Shown piece after piece: positions 58,980 to 62,417 of a DNA stretch of 64,000 nt (position 1 is the first letter of the stretch; every line of letters begins with the position of its first letter). This stretch comes from Sulfuricurvum sp. (GTDB lineage Bacteria; Campylobacterota; Campylobacteria; Campylobacterales; Sulfurimonadaceae). Under the pieces are notes generated by a model. That model searched no databases. It saw only the letters and a program-made list of their open reading frames with translations, and was not told the origin of the DNA. Position numbers and translations under genes: made by a program. The stretch is taken from NCBI GenBank assembly GCA_030693335.1, contig JAUYAU010000001.1:13796-77795 (forward strand), read 5' to 3'.

Positions 58980-59047
58980 TATAATTTCGGCCTGCTTTGA
59001 GAAAATGATTTTTCAAAAGTAAATTAACTACCCATCAGGAGGCTATT
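58980..59047 (+). promoter_or_regulatory. rpsO promoter (-10 TATAAT) and structured 5' leader
   Basis: TATAAT at 58980-85; hairpin TTTGAGAAA-ATGA-TTTTTCAAA; 5' GGCCTGCT can pair with the SD region AGGAGGCT. Confidence 0.5.
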
Positions 59048-59323
59048 ATGGCTTTAGATACGGCTAAAAAAATGGAAATTATCAAAGAATTTCAACGAAC
59101 AGAGGGTGATACCGGTTCAAGTGAAGTTCAAATCGCATTGCTTTCAAAGCGTATCGGTGATCTTACAGAGCACCTTAAAATTTTCAAAAAAGATCACTCT
59201 TCACGTTTGGGTCTTTTGAAATTGGTTGGACAGCGTCGTCGTTTGATGCGTTATTTGAAGCGTACAAACCGTGCAAGCTACATCAAATTAATTGCTGAGC
59301 TTAACATCCGCGACAATATCTAA
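59048..59323 (+). CDS. rpsO: 30S ribosomal protein S15
   Basis: [29 protein letters not shown]. Confidence 0.99.
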
Positions 59324-59656: not shown

Positions 59657-60376
59657 TTAGATTCCGAAAATCTTTTTTGCTCTCTCCAAGTCTTCTACCG
59701 TATCAATTCCAAATCCGCTGCTTGCCACTTTGATCATGGATATTTTTTTGCCGTGATAGAGTGCTCTAAGTTGTTCGAGTTTTTCGATGTCTTCAAGTGG
59801 CGCTTCCCCCAGTGCGCAGAAATCGTGGAGAGATTTTTTGGTAAACCCGTAAATACCGATATGCCCGAAATAAGAAGCTTCTCCACTGCGGTTAAACGGG
59901 ATAGGGGAACGGGAAAAATAGATGGCATTGTGGGCATCATCCGTAATCACTTTGACCATATTAGGGTCATTCGCCGATTCGGTATTGATGGCATTGTAAC
60001 AGCTTGCCATGATGAAAGGTGTATTTTGAGCTTTTAGAGTATTCAGACGTTCAATGAGCTGTGTTAAAACTTCGGTTTCGATAAACGGCTCATCGGCTTG
60101 GACGTTGATGATGAGTTCATCATCAGGAATATCAAGAAGCTGGGCACATTCATTGATACGGTCGGTTCCGCTTTTATGCGTTGTGGAGGTAAGACGTGCT
60201 TCAACGTCGTGAGCCGCACAGATTTCGAGGATTTTTTCATCGTCACACGCGACTACAACGCGGTCAATGGACTTGACCCGTTTGGCGGTACGAATCACCA
60301 TCGGTAAACCGCCGATGTCGGCTAAAACTTTTTGAGGAAAACGGGTTGAGGCGAGACGGGCAGGGATGATAATCAT
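59657..60376 (-). CDS. kdsB: 3-deoxy-manno-octulosonate cytidylyltransferase
   Basis: IIPARLASTRFPQKVL, SGTDRI, NVQADEPF, YFSRSPIP, EKLEQLRAL. Confidence 0.97.
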   Translation of the reverse strand: MIIIPARLASTRFPQKVLADIGGLPMVIRTAKRVKSIDRVVVACDDEKILEICAAHDVEARLTSTTHKSGTDRINECAQLLDIPDDELIINVQADEPFIETEVLTQLIERLNTLKAQNTPFIMASCYNAINTESANDPNMVKVITDDAHNAIYFSRSPIPFNRSGEASYFGHIGIYGFTKKSLHDFCALGEAPLEDIEKLEQLRALYHGKKISMIKVASSGFGIDTVEDLERAKKIFGI

Positions 60377-60393
60377 GATTTGACCTAGTAAAA

Positions 60394-60415
60394 GATATAA
60401 TAAAGCAATTATATC
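60394..60415. promoter_or_regulatory. Palindrome holding opposing TATAAT -10 boxes for fic (+) and kdsB (-)
   Basis: GATATAAT-AAAGCA-ATTATATC, perfect 8-bp inverted repeat. Confidence 0.55.
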
Positions 60416-60529
60416 CCAAAGGGTGATAGATTGGGTGTCTTTTAGAGGTTGTTAGTTCGGAGAAAAGTTCGAAAAACGTCGATAAAGCAATCATTAAATG
60501 AAAAATAAAGATGAAGGGAGGAGCGAGAA

Positions 60530-61597
60530 ATGAAAGAATTTATCCTACAAACTTTACCCCTTCAAAAAGAGATAGAAACCACCAAAATTCTCAAAAAATC
60601 GATCAGTGCAAACCGTGCTTTAGCACGTCTGAACGGTGTGGCGAAGATTATCCCGAACAGTGCGGTTCTCATCAATTCTTTGGTACTACAAGAGGCAAAA
60701 GACAGTTCCGAGATCGAAAATATCATCACGACACATGATGAACTGTACCGTGCCGGTTTGGATATTTCAAGTGTCACTAATGAAGCCAAAGAAGTACAAA
60801 ACTACCGAGAAGCACTGTTACGAGGGTTTTCTCTCGTGCAAGATAATCGTCTGTTGTTAAAAAAGTACATCATAGAGATTCAGCAGATCTTAGAGCAAAA
60901 CAATGCGGGTGTGCGCCGTCAAAGCGGTACGATTCTGAAAAATGTTCAAACGGGGGAGGTCGTTTTTACGCCACCGCAAGAGTATGAGGTCATACAGGCA
61001 CTTTTGGATAATCTCGAAACGTATATCAATGAACCCAACGAGATAGACGATCTCATCAATATGGCGATTATCCATTATCAGTTTGAGTCTATTCATCCGT
61101 TTTATGACGGAAATGGGCGAACGGGGCGAATTATAAATATCTTGTATCTGATTTTAAAAGATTTACTCGATATTCCTATCCTCTATCTGAGCCGCTATAT
61201 CATCACCCATAAGGCGGATTATTATAGACTTCTCCAAGAGGTTAGAACCAAAGATAATTGGGAAGAGTGGATTTTGTATATGCTCGATAGTGTTGAACAA
61301 ACGTCGATTGAGACGATTGAACTGATTGAGGGGATTAATGATTTAATGATAGCTACACAAGATAAAATATCTACCGAACTTCCGAAGATTTACAGTAAAG
61401 ATTTGGTTGAGGTGCTTTTTATGCATCCATATACGAAGATAGAGTTTTTGGTGGATAGGCTACATATCACGAGAAAAACGGCTTCAAAATATCTCAATGA
61501 GCTAGAAATGTTAGGTATATTAAAAACGATACAAATCAAAAATAGTAAATTTTTTATCAATGTTGATTTATTTGAAATATTACGCAAAGGGATATAG
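60530..61597 (+). CDS. Fic family adenylyltransferase (class II, SoFic-like)
   Basis: HPFYDGNGRTGR catalytic motif; SSEIEN inhibitory (S/T)xxxE(G/N) motif; C-terminal HTH-like region. Confidence 0.93.
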   Translation: MKEFILQTLPLQKEIETTKILKKSISANRALARLNGVAKIIPNSAVLINSLVLQEAKDSSEIENIITTHDELYRAGLDISSVTNEAKEVQNYREALLRGFSLVQDNRLLLKKYIIEIQQILEQNNAGVRRQSGTILKNVQTGEVVFTPPQEYEVIQALLDNLETYINEPNEIDDLINMAIIHYQFESIHPFYDGNGRTGRIINILYLILKDLLDIPILYLSRYIITHKADYYRLLQEVRTKDNWEEWILYMLDSVEQTSIETIELIEGINDLMIATQDKISTELPKIYSKDLVEVLFMHPYTKIEFLVDRLHITRKTASKYLNELEMLGILKTIQIKNSKFFINVDLFEILRKGI

Positions 61598-61717
61598 GTA
61601 AAAAAACAGCAAAATTTACGCATAGGATATAAGCTATGGGTAAAAAATCTATAAATTTACCCGTAGGTCTAAACCTATGTTAAAAAAACCGTAAAATTTA
61701 CACATGACTAAAAAAGG
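61592..61717. repeat. Three degenerate palindromic direct repeats with a 41-bp period
   Basis: AAATTTAC core at 61612, 61653 and 61694; unit 2 is CTATGGGTAAA-N11-TTTACCCGTAG. Confidence 0.7.
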
Positions 61718-61724
61718 TATCTAA

Positions 61725-62417
61725 ATGCTCCTTTATCAGCCCGATGGCGGCTATTGTTACAACAGCGATTCGATACTGCTGTACGGATTCATCACACACT
61801 TAAATCCCAAGGGGCGCATGCTTGATGTGGGTGCTGGATGCGGTATTGTGGGACTGCTCACAGGGCGTGATTGTGAGGTACAGCTCGAAGCGGTGGAAAA
61901 ACAGGGTGTTTATGCCGAATTTTCCAGACGCAATGCACAGATTAACCGTATAGAGTATGTTTTGCATGAGTGTGATTTTTTGGAGTATGAGGACAAAGAG
62001 GGGTTTGATTGGATTGTCTCTAATCCCCCATTTTATCATGAAGGTTCCGCACGTTCAGAAAATGCGATGATCCATCAAGCCCGTTACAATGTTCATATGC
62101 CCATAGAGGCATATGCCCGAAAAATCGCGAAGCTTTTACGACCGCAGGGCTCTGCCGTCATCTGTTATGATGCACGACAATTTGCCCAAATTTGCAGTGC
62201 GTTTGAAGCTGTCAAATTAAGAGTCGTTGATGTACAATTCGTCCATTCTAAAAGCGATCGTCCCAGCACGCTGGTGATGTTTCGCGTGAAAAAAAACAGC
62301 AAGTCGGCAATGAACGTATGGGCACCTCTAATTACGTTTGAAAACGATCAATACACTCCCGCCGTACAGGCGATTTATGACAAGGCAAAGGCGCACAGTA
62401 TCAAATGTCCGATTTAA
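61725..62417 (+). CDS. tRNA1(Val) (adenine37-N6)-methyltransferase (YfiC/TrmN6 family)
   Basis: YQPDGGYCYNSDS, LDVGAGCG, IVSNPPFY. Confidence 0.88.
   Translation: MLLYQPDGGYCYNSDSILLYGFITHLNPKGRMLDVGAGCGIVGLLTGRDCEVQLEAVEKQGVYAEFSRRNAQINRIEYVLHECDFLEYEDKEGFDWIVSNPPFYHEGSARSENAMIHQARYNVHMPIEAYARKIAKLLRPQGSAVICYDARQFAQICSAFEAVKLRVVDVQFVHSKSDRPSTLVMFRVKKNSKSAMNVWAPLITFENDQYTPAVQAIYDKAKAHSIKCPI

Follow-up and report, generated by a model that had tools for sequence, protein, structure and literature searches.

Directly behind a fic gene of Sulfuricurvum sp., and overlapping its stop codon, lie three imperfect palindromes that are very probably cognate binding sites for the winged-helix (wHTH) tail of the adjoining Fic protein. 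The wider reading, in which these repeats form an operator array for the Fic wHTH, has in our estimate a probability of about 0.75. The array would then most likely be a 3' variant of the self-operators of CccR and SoFic, with a known principle of self-regulation placed behind the gene and not before it. Comparison of the sequences shows that the candidate sites belong to fic and that their half-sites follow the recognition helix of the protein; the roles that we infer for the array at the 3' end are roadblock feedback, methyltransferase gating or docking. The window referred to below is the whole stretch of DNA analysed, 64,000 nucleotides in length.

The fic locus

The features of the locus are as follows, with positions given in the window.

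59657-60376, minus strand: kdsB, left flank of the insertion (Pfam CTP_transf_3 and synteny)
60394-60401, plus strand: -10-like box GATATAAT, left junction of the ~1.3-kb insertion, 130 nt upstream of fic
60530-61597, plus strand: fic, 355 aa, SoFic-type class II Fic (open reading frame list, Pfam, PADLOC and PDB)
61466-61504, plus strand: codons of the wHTH recognition helix, ITRKTASKYLNEL, residues 313-325 (alignment mapping)
61592-61625, no strand: unit 1, ATATAGGTAAA-N12-TTTACGCATAG, 8 of 11 arm pairs, near-cognate palindrome
61626-61633, no strand: linker 1, GATATAAG
61634-61666, no strand: unit 2, CTATGGGTAAA-N11-TTTACCCGTAG, 10 of 11 arm pairs, sole mismatch T:G
61667-61674, no strand: linker 2, GTCTAAAC
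61675-61706, no strand: unit 3, CTATGTTAAAA...TTTACACATG, left arm with a one-base deletion
61707-61724, plus strand: ribosome-binding region ACTAAAAAAGGTATCTAA, serving the downstream gene and kept with unit 3 in all occupied alleles
61725-62417, plus strand: methyltransferase, core gene and right flank of the insertion (MTS domain, TrmN-like, under the equivalog cut-off)

The fic product carries Fic_N, Fic and SoFic-like C-terminal wHTH domains (PF13784, PF02661 and PF21248, all above their cut-offs), matches the PADLOC SoFic model over its full length (E = 5e-118) and has SoFic as its nearest solved structures (3EQX/9TCH; phmmer E ~1e-88 to SoFic PDB chains). The catalytic motif HPFYDGNGR, of the form HPFx[D/E]GNGR, occupies residues 189-197 with the catalytic histidine at H189, and its columns are invariant in alignment A1. 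The inhibitory motif SSEIEN at residues 59-64 fits the N-terminal (S/T)xxxE(G/N) pattern, as defined in the class I-III scheme cited in PMC12249575. Against the NCBIfam equivalog NF046030 the protein scores 401 bits, below the cut-off of 550, and on these matches we class it as a SoFic family member and not as an equivalog of the Shewanella/E. coli enzyme. SoFic itself is an anti-phage system that consists of one gene and occurs widely; an anti-phage or toxin role for the present protein would follow from its family alone.

Three palindromic units at the stop codon

Read directly from the sequence, positions 61592-61706 contain three imperfect palindromes whose AAATTTAC cores start at 61612, 61653 and 61694, giving an exact 41-bp period. 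The fic stop TAG (61595-61597) falls within the left arm of unit 1, which is made up of the last codon ATA, the stop TAG and GTAAA, and the same -2 register with a TAG stop is found in relatives of the TRK class described below (L003, L004, L061, L062, L157 and L158). Unit 2 is the best cognate site, with a GGGTA core and a length of 31 bp from TAT to its mirror triplet, which is GTA here and ATA in relatives; it is kept in G025, G027, G003, L062-L065 and many metagenome relatives. Unit 3 is a non-cognate hybrid with a left arm of the TRQ type and a decayed right arm, and it sits beside the methyltransferase start even in relatives that have no fic (G022, G020, G024, G014, G025 and G033 were compared). 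These coordinates and unit sequences, together with a repeat search of the window that recovers the three copies and their inverted arms, agree with the original prediction, which had described three palindromes on an exact 41-bp core period, arms of ~11 bp around an 11-12-nt centre, 10 of 11 pairs in unit 2 and the fic TAG inside unit 1. Tandem Repeats Finder did not report the array because its copies are too diverged. As palindromes the units are uneven, which sits less comfortably with an operator: unit 2 alone is a good palindrome here, unit 1 pairing at 8 of 11 positions and unit 3 carrying an indel.

When the palindrome pattern was sought with up to three mismatches, unit 2 was the sole match in the window, against 0 expected from shuffles, and a looser scan of the whole 2.17-Mb Sulfuricurvum genome returned the three units at the fic locus and no match elsewhere. 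Further copies of the motif, for which a genome scan had been proposed, are therefore absent from this genome and the units are not a REP-like family; dispersed palindromes of the REP/BIME type were rejected because the fuzzy genome-wide scan matches the fic locus alone. A CRISPR array was likewise rejected, as the original prediction had held, since the units are 71-75% alike, are separated by 8-bp linkers and are each palindromic with a variable centre. A 15-codon open reading frame that begins at the ATG in unit 2 (61636) occurs only in the four nearest relatives, and was rejected as a gene because it lacks a Shine-Dalgarno sequence and is interrupted in L064 and L065. What we regard as decisive against chance is the appearance of the same architecture beside related fic genes.

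Arrays beside fic homologues

A search of the DNA downstream of homologues, as originally suggested, revealed tandem palindromes at or after the fic stop in relatives whose Fic proteins are 93-96% (G025, G027, G003, G033), 68% (G026), 55%, 47% and 35% identical, and over this whole range of 35-96% the arrays are built from 31-bp units that repeat every 40-41 bp. The side on which the array stands differs between lineages: Campylobacterota have it 3' of fic, frequently with its start within the last codons, and E. coli, Salmonella, Flavobacterium and others have it 5' of the gene. Units of matching type and period were found upstream of fic in L088, L111, E. coli, Salmonella and a Francisella plasmid. 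A generic 11-bp-arm palindrome detector proved noisy, with many false units, and was replaced by a strict definition (TAT-N5...N5-ATA, 31 bp). By this definition, 59 of 84 non-identical relative loci from metagenome and genome contigs contain at least one unit, 95 of 109 units are exactly 31 bp, and adjacent units are spaced by 40-41 bp in 65 of 74 pairs, in keeping with the spacing of about four helical turns that had been proposed.

The position of the array relative to the gene is also patterned. The first unit starts at -19 with respect to the stop codon in 18 loci and at -4/-2 in seven, and in many others it starts 3' of the stop codon. At 31 of 65 loci the fic start overlaps a same-strand upstream gene or lies within 30 nt of it, which leaves no space for a 5' operator. 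The gene after the array is co-oriented in 38 of 46 loci, where it is often hsdM, and convergent in the remaining 8. The spacer within the units is directional, its sense strand containing 60% A against 23% T, whereas in the linkers the values are 32% and 35%, with no A/T strand bias in the linkers of the clade. Such an A-rich directional spacer is not explained by a symmetric dimer site, and in that respect it counts against the operator reading.

Half-site and recognition helix

Whichever side of fic carries the array, the core of the half-site tracks the recognition helix. The correspondence is as follows, the counts being those for perfectly symmetric proximal units.

TRK helix: GGGTA, 10 of 12
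TRQ helix: GTTAA, 11 of 11
HRD helix: ACCGA, 7 of 9
YRD helix: GTTGT, 4 of 4
HRE helix: GTCGA, 2 of 2
[AK]RQ helix: GTCGA

In the present protein the helix element that tracks the GGGTA half-site is the triplet T314-R315-K316, as read from the tables of helix against half-site. The TRK/ATGGGTA pairing recurs in a Bacillota MAG with an upstream array, TRQ/GTTAAC is found in Flavivirga, a gammaproteobacterium and Francisella, and A[KQ]RQ/ATGTCGA accompanies upstream as well as downstream arrays. Helix identity correlates with the sets of repeated palindromic words (Mantel r = 0.29); with identity of the Fic core controlled, the partial Mantel correlation is 0.19, a value reached in 0 of 2000 permutations, and for pairs whose arrays lie on opposite sides r rises to 0.52. 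Shared ancestry partly confounds this covariation, but the recurrence of the same code across phyla and on both sides of the gene argues against it as the explanation. The suggestion that the repeats are an operator array for the Fic HTH is thus borne out to the extent that the half-sites co-vary with the helix across phyla and on either side. No such backing was obtained for the accompanying suggestion of control over the downstream tRNA-methyltransferase operon: it is fic, and not that gene, which the array accompanies, G003 differs in what lies downstream, and a convergent gene follows in 8 of 46 loci.

A natural pair of alleles makes the same point on a finer scale. The Fic proteins of G003 and G033 are 96% identical and differ in the helix by K/Q, in a small patch where substitutions cluster; further differences are in the C-terminal codons and in the array half-sites (GGGTAAA against GTTAA), and the 60 nt that separate the two patches are 100% identical.

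Distal units, by comparison with proximal ones, are non-cognate in 6 of 7 cases. This is one argument for viewing the array as a relic with no function at the 3' end, either a 5' operator array that was moved when an [array-fic] unit was duplicated or permuted, or an undecayed leftover of earlier alleles. Unit 3 remains where fic has been lost, and tandem fic genes and bracketing arrays occur at other loci, both of which would suit such an origin. In dozens of diverged loci, however, the proximal units are cognate and of perfect symmetry, and they have changed together with the helix, which requires selection on the 3' sites themselves, and we consider it improbable that the array as a whole is a relic.

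Flanking genes and insertion site

Comparison with empty-site alleles (G011, G023, G016, G009, G003, G018 and G001), another of the checks first proposed, shows that fic and its array form an insertion of ~1.3 kb between kdsB and the methyltransferase. In these relatives the GATATAAT box lies ~30 nt upstream of the methyltransferase start. The methyltransferase is present in 40 of 41 relatives, and the interval between it and kdsB is a hot spot whose cargo differs among Sulfuricurvum genomes. The 153 bp upstream of fic contain no palindromic unit, no terminator-like site was found between 61400 and 61730, and consensus promoter and terminator scans performed no better than shuffles.

This arrangement raises the prospect that the array is a portable, Fic-controlled promoter/operator for whichever gene follows the cassette, here the TrmN-like methyltransferase. 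The native promoter, separated from its gene by the insertion, would have been replaced, and Fic would repress the downstream gene and not itself. Between the last unit and the methyltransferase ATG lie 18 nt, a geometry like that of 5' arrays before fic, and unit 3 is kept with the ribosome-binding region in eight genomes of differing cargo, some without fic. A TAAAAT within the unit 3 spacer lies 27 nt before the ATG, comparable with TATAAT at 29 nt in the empty site, and the frequent co-orientation of the next gene, often hsdM, points the same way. Set against this, 83% co-orientation barely exceeds the usual genome background, convergent genes follow 8 of 46 arrays and G003 has no co-oriented neighbour. 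The promoter scan gives no support beyond shuffles, and a -10 box in every spacer was rejected because the -10-like T, at -12, is present in only ~14-17% of units. On balance, we think it unlikely that the array serves as a promoter for its neighbour.

The variable cargo also bears on whether the units could be attC-like or Xer-like recombination sites that bound mobile cassettes at the hot spot. Near-identical fic alleles are homologous only from about codon 7, and unit 3 is common to different cargoes. No recombinase-like open reading frame was found in 56-64 kb of the window or in the inserts, though; the other cargo genes of the hot spot are not each flanked by such units, the same units occur in promoters elsewhere, and the sequence of the arms changes with the Fic helix. 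G000 and G025 have almost the same first ~85 nt in the methyltransferase gene although their methyltransferase proteins are only ~70% identical, which fits exchange by homologous recombination. Recombination sites, the second option of the original prediction, are thus very unlikely, although its notion of sequences left behind survives in altered form, in that distal units are often non-cognate relics of earlier alleles.

An RNA function is a further reading, with tandem 3' UTR hairpins that act as a type III-like antitoxin or a processing signal, the third option of the original prediction, or as an mRNA stabiliser. The array is probably co-transcribed with fic, no terminator having been found between them, the plus strand folds better than shuffles (z = -3.5) and the A-rich spacer is a property of the sense strand alone. 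But a stable local hairpin is formed by unit 2 alone, folding of the opposite strand is nearly as good (z = -2.6), and G.U-compatible mismatches are not significantly in excess over A.C mismatches (53 against 38, p = 0.14). The arms are conserved in sequence, beyond what pairing would need, and track a helix that reads DNA; other lineages have identical units upstream of fic, and an Rfam scan at permissive E-values gave chance-level matches only. Nor is Fic an RNase, with only Fic_N, Fic and wHTH/HTH domains in Pfam, and the Pfam, PADLOC and PDB matches identify it as an AMP-transferase and no endoribonuclease. The type III toxin-antitoxin systems ToxIN, CptIN and TenpIN share with this locus short fixed-length tandem repeats that adjoin a toxin gene in a defence context. 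Their repeats precede the toxin, however, with a terminator between, and the RNA is processed by an endoRNase toxin, none of which holds here. An RNA role is, on our assessment, very unlikely.

Comparison with known systems

As to self-regulation, the literature searched describes no more than promoter binding by CccR and SoFic, each at its own gene. CccR of Yersinia pseudotuberculosis uses its HTH to bind an inverted repeat in the promoter of its gene (PMC9755527), and the resemblance is close: this class II Fic toxin likewise has its HTH at the C terminus, and its dimer acts on an inverted repeat beside its own gene in negative autoregulation. CccR has a single site of two 10-bp half-sites, 26 bp apart, in the promoter over the -35/-10 boxes (PMC9755527), whereas here there are three units with an 11-12 bp spacer and a 41-bp period, located 3' of fic over the stop codon and not over the -35/-10 boxes of its own promoter. 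The SoFic dimer (mloA, SO_4266, Shewanella oneidensis) binds DNA of its own gene, the 100 bp before the start (bioRxiv 10.64898/2026.07.09.737422). It belongs to the same family, and its DNA binding is dimer-dependent and sequence-specific. The bound fragment contains ATGTCGAT palindromes that fit the helix/half-site code and includes ACATGTCGAT..ATCGACAT, as that code predicts for the AKRQTAS helix of SoFic. It differs from the present case in that the bound DNA is 5' of the gene, with boxes left unmapped in the paper, while here a TRK helix is paired with GGGTA sites. Proven Fic operators are in promoters and none is 3' of its gene, which is a further point against the operator reading.

DNA may also regulate the enzyme itself, and for this the wHTH Fic protein CbFic2 of Coxiella burnetii offers a precedent, DNA binding altering both its oligomeric state and its activity according to the available text of PMC10628234; this text describes no cognate array, and the protein acts in the context of a eukaryotic host. 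The array could by analogy be a docking or sequestration platform that acts on the enzyme and not on transcription, holding DNA-bound Fic dimers in one activity state (AMPylase or deAMPylase) and harmless until infection disturbs the complex. The same text reports that HTH-DNA binding dimerises CbFic2 and switches it from AMPylase to deAMPylase, and the activities of SoFic and EcSofic are dimerisation-dependent. A region downstream of EcSofic is reported to neutralise toxicity, and its 47-aa product resisted purification (PMC12249575). Two or three sites per chromosome could nevertheless accommodate few dimers, CbFic2 is activated by synthetic dsDNA of 10-60 bp for which the available text states no particular sequence as required (PMC10628234), and at the E. 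coli and Salmonella loci inspected the arrays are upstream of the gene, with none downstream. A docking role is accordingly quite unlikely. That 47-aa open reading frame, the 'AS1' antitoxin 3' of E. coli Sofic (PMC12249575), was also considered as such an array, but no link was found because the E. coli and Salmonella loci inspected have 5' arrays and no 3' array.

Proposed mechanism

Under the operator reading, each 31-bp unit would comprise two inverted half-sites (TAT plus a 5-nt core) with 22 bp from centre to centre, about two helical turns (~75 Å), and would therefore suit one Fic dimer; the 41-bp period, about four turns, would place successive dimers on the same face of the DNA. Units 1 and 2, with GGGTA-type cores, would fit the T-R-K helix (unit 1 being near-cognate), and unit 3 may be a non-cognate relic retained beside the downstream gene. 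Since fic in this clade is often a promoter-less cassette in foreign operons, a 3' array with its start at or within the last codons could give it negative feedback that is independent of the promoter. Once made, Fic would attach to the DNA adjoining fic and halt RNA polymerase where the open reading frame ends, a block that would also gate read-through into the methyltransferase.

Intragenic roadblock operators are known, for example PurR at purB and lac O2, where bound repressor halts elongating RNA polymerase. Those are single sites with dedicated repressors, whereas the block postulated here would involve a phased multi-site array bound by the product of the transcribed gene. As a specific mechanism the roadblock is possible, though we would not back it at even odds. 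The first units that start ahead of the stop codon, and the fic starts that leave no space for a 5' operator, speak in its favour. With the first unit past the stop codon in many loci, a block within the open reading frame is not universal. Expression of the housekeeping methyltransferase would drop too under a roadblock, which looks costly.

More tentatively still, the SoFic genes of this clade may be portable, promoter-independent and self-limiting toxin cassettes. The array would start in the last codons, so that C-terminal codons and stop double as a half-site, and fresh Fic, binding in cis, would stop RNA polymerase short of the end of the open reading frame under any foreign promoter, with the downstream host gene insulated or gated. 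Matched exchanges of helix patch and array would create orthogonal specificities (TRK/GGGTA, TRQ/GTTAA, HRD/ACCGA, YRD/GTTGT and others), the non-cognate distal units would preserve, as fossils, the succession of allele replacements, and the conserved A-rich spacer of the sense strand would be a second, directional signal.

What these comparisons add for the family is a set of predicted cognate sites in the form of a strictly phased array (31-bp units on a 41-bp period), the observation that such an array may sit 3' of the gene over the stop codon, and a simple, readable helix/half-site code that predicts the site of each protein. Feedback by a 3' roadblock in a mobile toxin cassette becomes a directly testable hypothesis. 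Reading the repeats as an array would also explain why palindromic relics last at a defence hot spot after fic has been lost. Natural allele pairs that exchange helix and sites jointly are likewise new here, and provide ready-made orthogonal protein-DNA pairs for experiments; in one genome of such a pair, G003, the array has accompanied fic into a different genomic context.

Results

The palindromic array at the fic stop codon

Judged from its sequence, the array is genuine and conserved, and most likely represents a form of the self-operators known from winged-helix (wHTH) Fic toxins that lies 3' of the gene and overlaps its stop codon. Its parts, with the units as read from the sequence, are:

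60530-61597, + strand: fic ORF, 355 codons
61592-61625: unit 1, ATATAGGTAAA-N12-TTTACGCATAG, centre 61603-61614
61634-61666: unit 2, CTATGGGTAAA-N11-TTTACCCGTAG, centre 61645-61655
61675-61706: unit 3, CTATGTTAAAA...TTTACACATG, centre 61686-61696

The starts of AAATTTAC at 61612, 61653 and 61694 give a period of exactly 41 bp, and the fic stop codon TAG (61595-61597) lies within the left arm of unit 1, which reads ATA-TAG-GTAAA. Between the end of the fic ORF and the start of the next gene, a TrmN-like methyltransferase, at 61725 there are 127 non-coding bases. A repeat search recovered the three copies and their inverted arms; the array was undetected by Tandem Repeats Finder, no such palindrome is expected by chance in the window, and the whole 2.17-Mb genome holds no further copies of the units. 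The original prediction of three palindromic units, with a 41-bp period and the fic TAG inside the first, was correct.

The protein has Fic_N, Fic and SoFic-like C-terminal winged-helix domains (Pfam), with the catalytic HPFYDGNGR and inhibitory SSEIEN motifs intact, and its nearest solved structures are those of Shewanella SoFic. PADLOC assigns it to the SoFic defence family (E = 5e-118), and the NCBIfam SoFic equivalog model gives 401 bits, under its cut-off of 550. Sulfuricurvum sp. STA_65 has a fic locus 96% identical to the window's. A 15-codon ORF, MGKKSINLPVGLNLC, opens at the ATG of unit 2 (61636-61683) and is intact in three related genomes (G025, G027 and G003); it is broken in more distant arrays, has no Shine-Dalgarno sequence and was rejected as a gene, and it probably arises incidentally from the palindrome.

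Recurrence beside other fic genes

In related genomes, fic homologues sharing 68%, 55%, 47% and roughly 35% identity also have palindromes in tandem that begin at the stop codon or beyond it, as do many of 80 loci drawn from 185,579 species genomes. By a generic detector, 21 of 86 regions downstream of the gene and 36 of 85 upstream of it contained at least two palindromic units, against 3/89 control regions inside the gene and 5/86 shuffles. A survey of 84 non-identical loci of relatives, on metagenome and genome contigs, used the strict unit TAT-N5...N5-ATA and found at least one in 59; unit length was exactly 31 bp in 95 of 109 units, and 65 of 74 pairs were spaced 40-41 bp from start to start. 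Most commonly, in 18 loci, the first unit begins 19 nt ahead of the stop codon, its left arm forming the ...MLKKGI codons, and in seven loci, the window's included, it starts 2-4 nt before. In other lineages an array of this unit type and period lies immediately upstream of fic, for example at loci L088 and L111 (the latter with three units at a 41-bp period), in E. coli and Salmonella, and on a Francisella plasmid.

Enterobacterial SoFic genes (L153-L155 and L151; E. coli and Salmonella) with the helix A[KR]RQTAS have long upstream arrays of ATGTCGAT boxes, extending into the start codon (AAACATATG). The SoFic copy of E. coli S10 is annotated as frameshifted, and a second Fic gene comes after it.

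Half-site sequence and recognition helix

The 5-nt core that follows TAT tracks the start of the wHTH recognition helix.

Table. Helix and core pairs in perfectly symmetric units no more than 70 nt from the stop
Helix T-R-K: core GGGTA, 10/12
Helix T-R-Q: core GTTAA, 11/11
Helix H-R-D: core ACCGA, 7/9
Helix Y-R-D: core GTTGT, 4/4
Helix H-R-E: core GTCGA, 2/2

The same pairs are found across phyla, whether the array is 5' or 3' of fic: TRK with ATGGGTA upstream of fic in a Bacillota MAG, TRQ with GTTAAC in Flavivirga, a gammaproteobacterium and Francisella, and A[KQ]RQ with ATGTCGA, 3' of the gene in five loci but 5' of it in E. coli and two MAGs. Helix identity correlates with shared repeated palindromic words (Mantel r = 0.29), a covariation that is partly confounded by ancestry; controlling for Fic-core identity leaves 0.19, matched in 0/2000 permutations, the converse partial correlation is 0.06, and r is 0.52 when only pairs whose arrays lie on opposite sides are compared. 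The clearest case in which helix and array appear to differ together is a natural swap between two related genomes, G003 and G033, whose Fic proteins are 96% identical with a K/Q difference in the helix and whose arrays are of the GGGTAAA and GTTAA types, respectively. The K/Q change belongs to a small patch of substitutions, most of them synonymous; the genes are then identical for 60 nt, and a second patch of differences opens 22 nt ahead of the stop codon.

By this code units 1 and 2 of the window are cognate (TRK), and unit 3, whose left arm is of the TRQ type, is a hybrid. Since distal units in other loci are mostly non-cognate (6/7), the pattern suggests that they may be relics of earlier alleles. 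Among metagenome relatives, L177, L182, L167 and L178 have arrays of up to eight units in which several classes of specificity follow one another, as in the order ACCGA, GTTGA/GTCGA, GTTAA and finally GGGTA; such arrays look as if they recorded one fic allele replacing another in turn.

Discussion

Self-binding is known for related proteins. Through its HTH, CccR represses its own promoter by binding to an inverted repeat there, and its reported helix separation is 70 Å (PMC9755527); the half-site centres of our units are 22 bp, about 75 Å, apart. Dimeric SoFic binds within the 100 bp that precede its own start, and the bound fragment (supplementary Table S2) contains ACATGTCGAT..ATCGACAT, the site expected from the code for the SoFic helix AKRQTAS (bioRxiv 10.64898/2026.07.09.737422). 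Whereas CccR and SoFic bind their own upstream or promoter DNA, the array here is 3' and overlaps the stop codon; we found no mention of 3' arrays in the papers on CccR and SoFic self-binding.

The next gene differs widely between loci (hsdM is frequent) and faces the array convergently in 8 of 46, so the array is best assigned to fic rather than to that gene. For 31 of 65 fic genes, an upstream gene on the same strand overlaps the start or ends no more than 30 nt before it, which leaves no room for a 5' operator. Because the array goes with fic and such loci lack 5' space, we favour promoter-independent feedback by Fic, in which one dimer would bind per unit; sitting where their own ORF ends, the dimers would get in the way of RNA polymerase and might also gate read-through into the methyltransferase. 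Alternatively, the array could be a Fic-controlled outward promoter, a relic, or, by analogy with CbFic2, whose dimer state is set by DNA (PMC10628234), a docking platform that fixes the dimer state of Fic.

The units are unlikely to act as RNA hairpins: unit 2 alone forms a local hairpin that is stable, folding is almost as good on the opposite strand (z = -3.5 on + and -2.6 on -), mismatches in 128 distinct units are G.U-compatible in 53 cases vs A.C in 38 (p = 0.14), and no Rfam family matches. A role as recombination sites is similarly doubtful, with no recombinase-like ORF among those at 56-64 kb or in the inserts and an arm sequence that depends on the cargo protein. A symmetric dimer site leaves one feature unexplained, as it needs no directional A-rich spacer: across units of L156-L235 the sense strand of fic has 60% A against 23% T in the spacer, where runs of A at the centre (AAAAAA-NNN-AAAAA) are near-invariant, and the 8-10 bp linkers between units show no A/T bias.

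Insertion site

Seven relatives have an empty site, at which only about 55 bp separate kdsB from the divergently oriented methyltransferase gene; here about 1.3 kb (fic and array) lies between the two, inserted just downstream of a GATATAAT box that in empty sites precedes the methyltransferase start by about 30 nt. This intergenic site (60377-61724; loci L141-L149) is a Sulfuricurvum defence-gene hot spot, with varied cargo of 0.8-5 kb in other genomes which, named by sequence resemblance rather than family models, includes Abi-like, AAA/RloB-like, MNT-HEPN-like, DUF1016-like and MazF-like genes, an ABC-3C-like set and a different Fic. Several genomes with other cargo retain unit 3 and the ribosome-binding region adjoining the methyltransferase start. 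Genomes whose methyltransferases share only about 70% identity have a fic-array block that is 93-96% identical, and in G003 this block lies elsewhere, directly behind an MNT-HEPN-like pair. As the 93-96%-identical alleles (L001, L061, L003, L004, L005) share no similarity in the first ~7 codons (60530-60550) and upstream DNA, the 5' junction of the mobile block is placed inside fic; the fic start overlaps the upstream gene in G003 and G033 and falls within about 12 nt after it in G025.

Upstream of rpsO, an S15-leader-like match (58991-59104, +) scores 31.5 bits (E = 2e-4), below the Rfam gathering score of 39.5. A GC-rich element of about 25 nt, CCTTCGACAGGCTCAGGGTGAACGG (reading PFDRLRVNG), adjoins relic units left of the last unit in L032, L041 and L048 (genomes G022, G014 and G024). 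It has seven copies in the window's own genome (contigs C5, C7, C8, C12:221436 and C18) and none in the window, stands beside an inverted copy in at least three places, and looks REP- or MITE-like.
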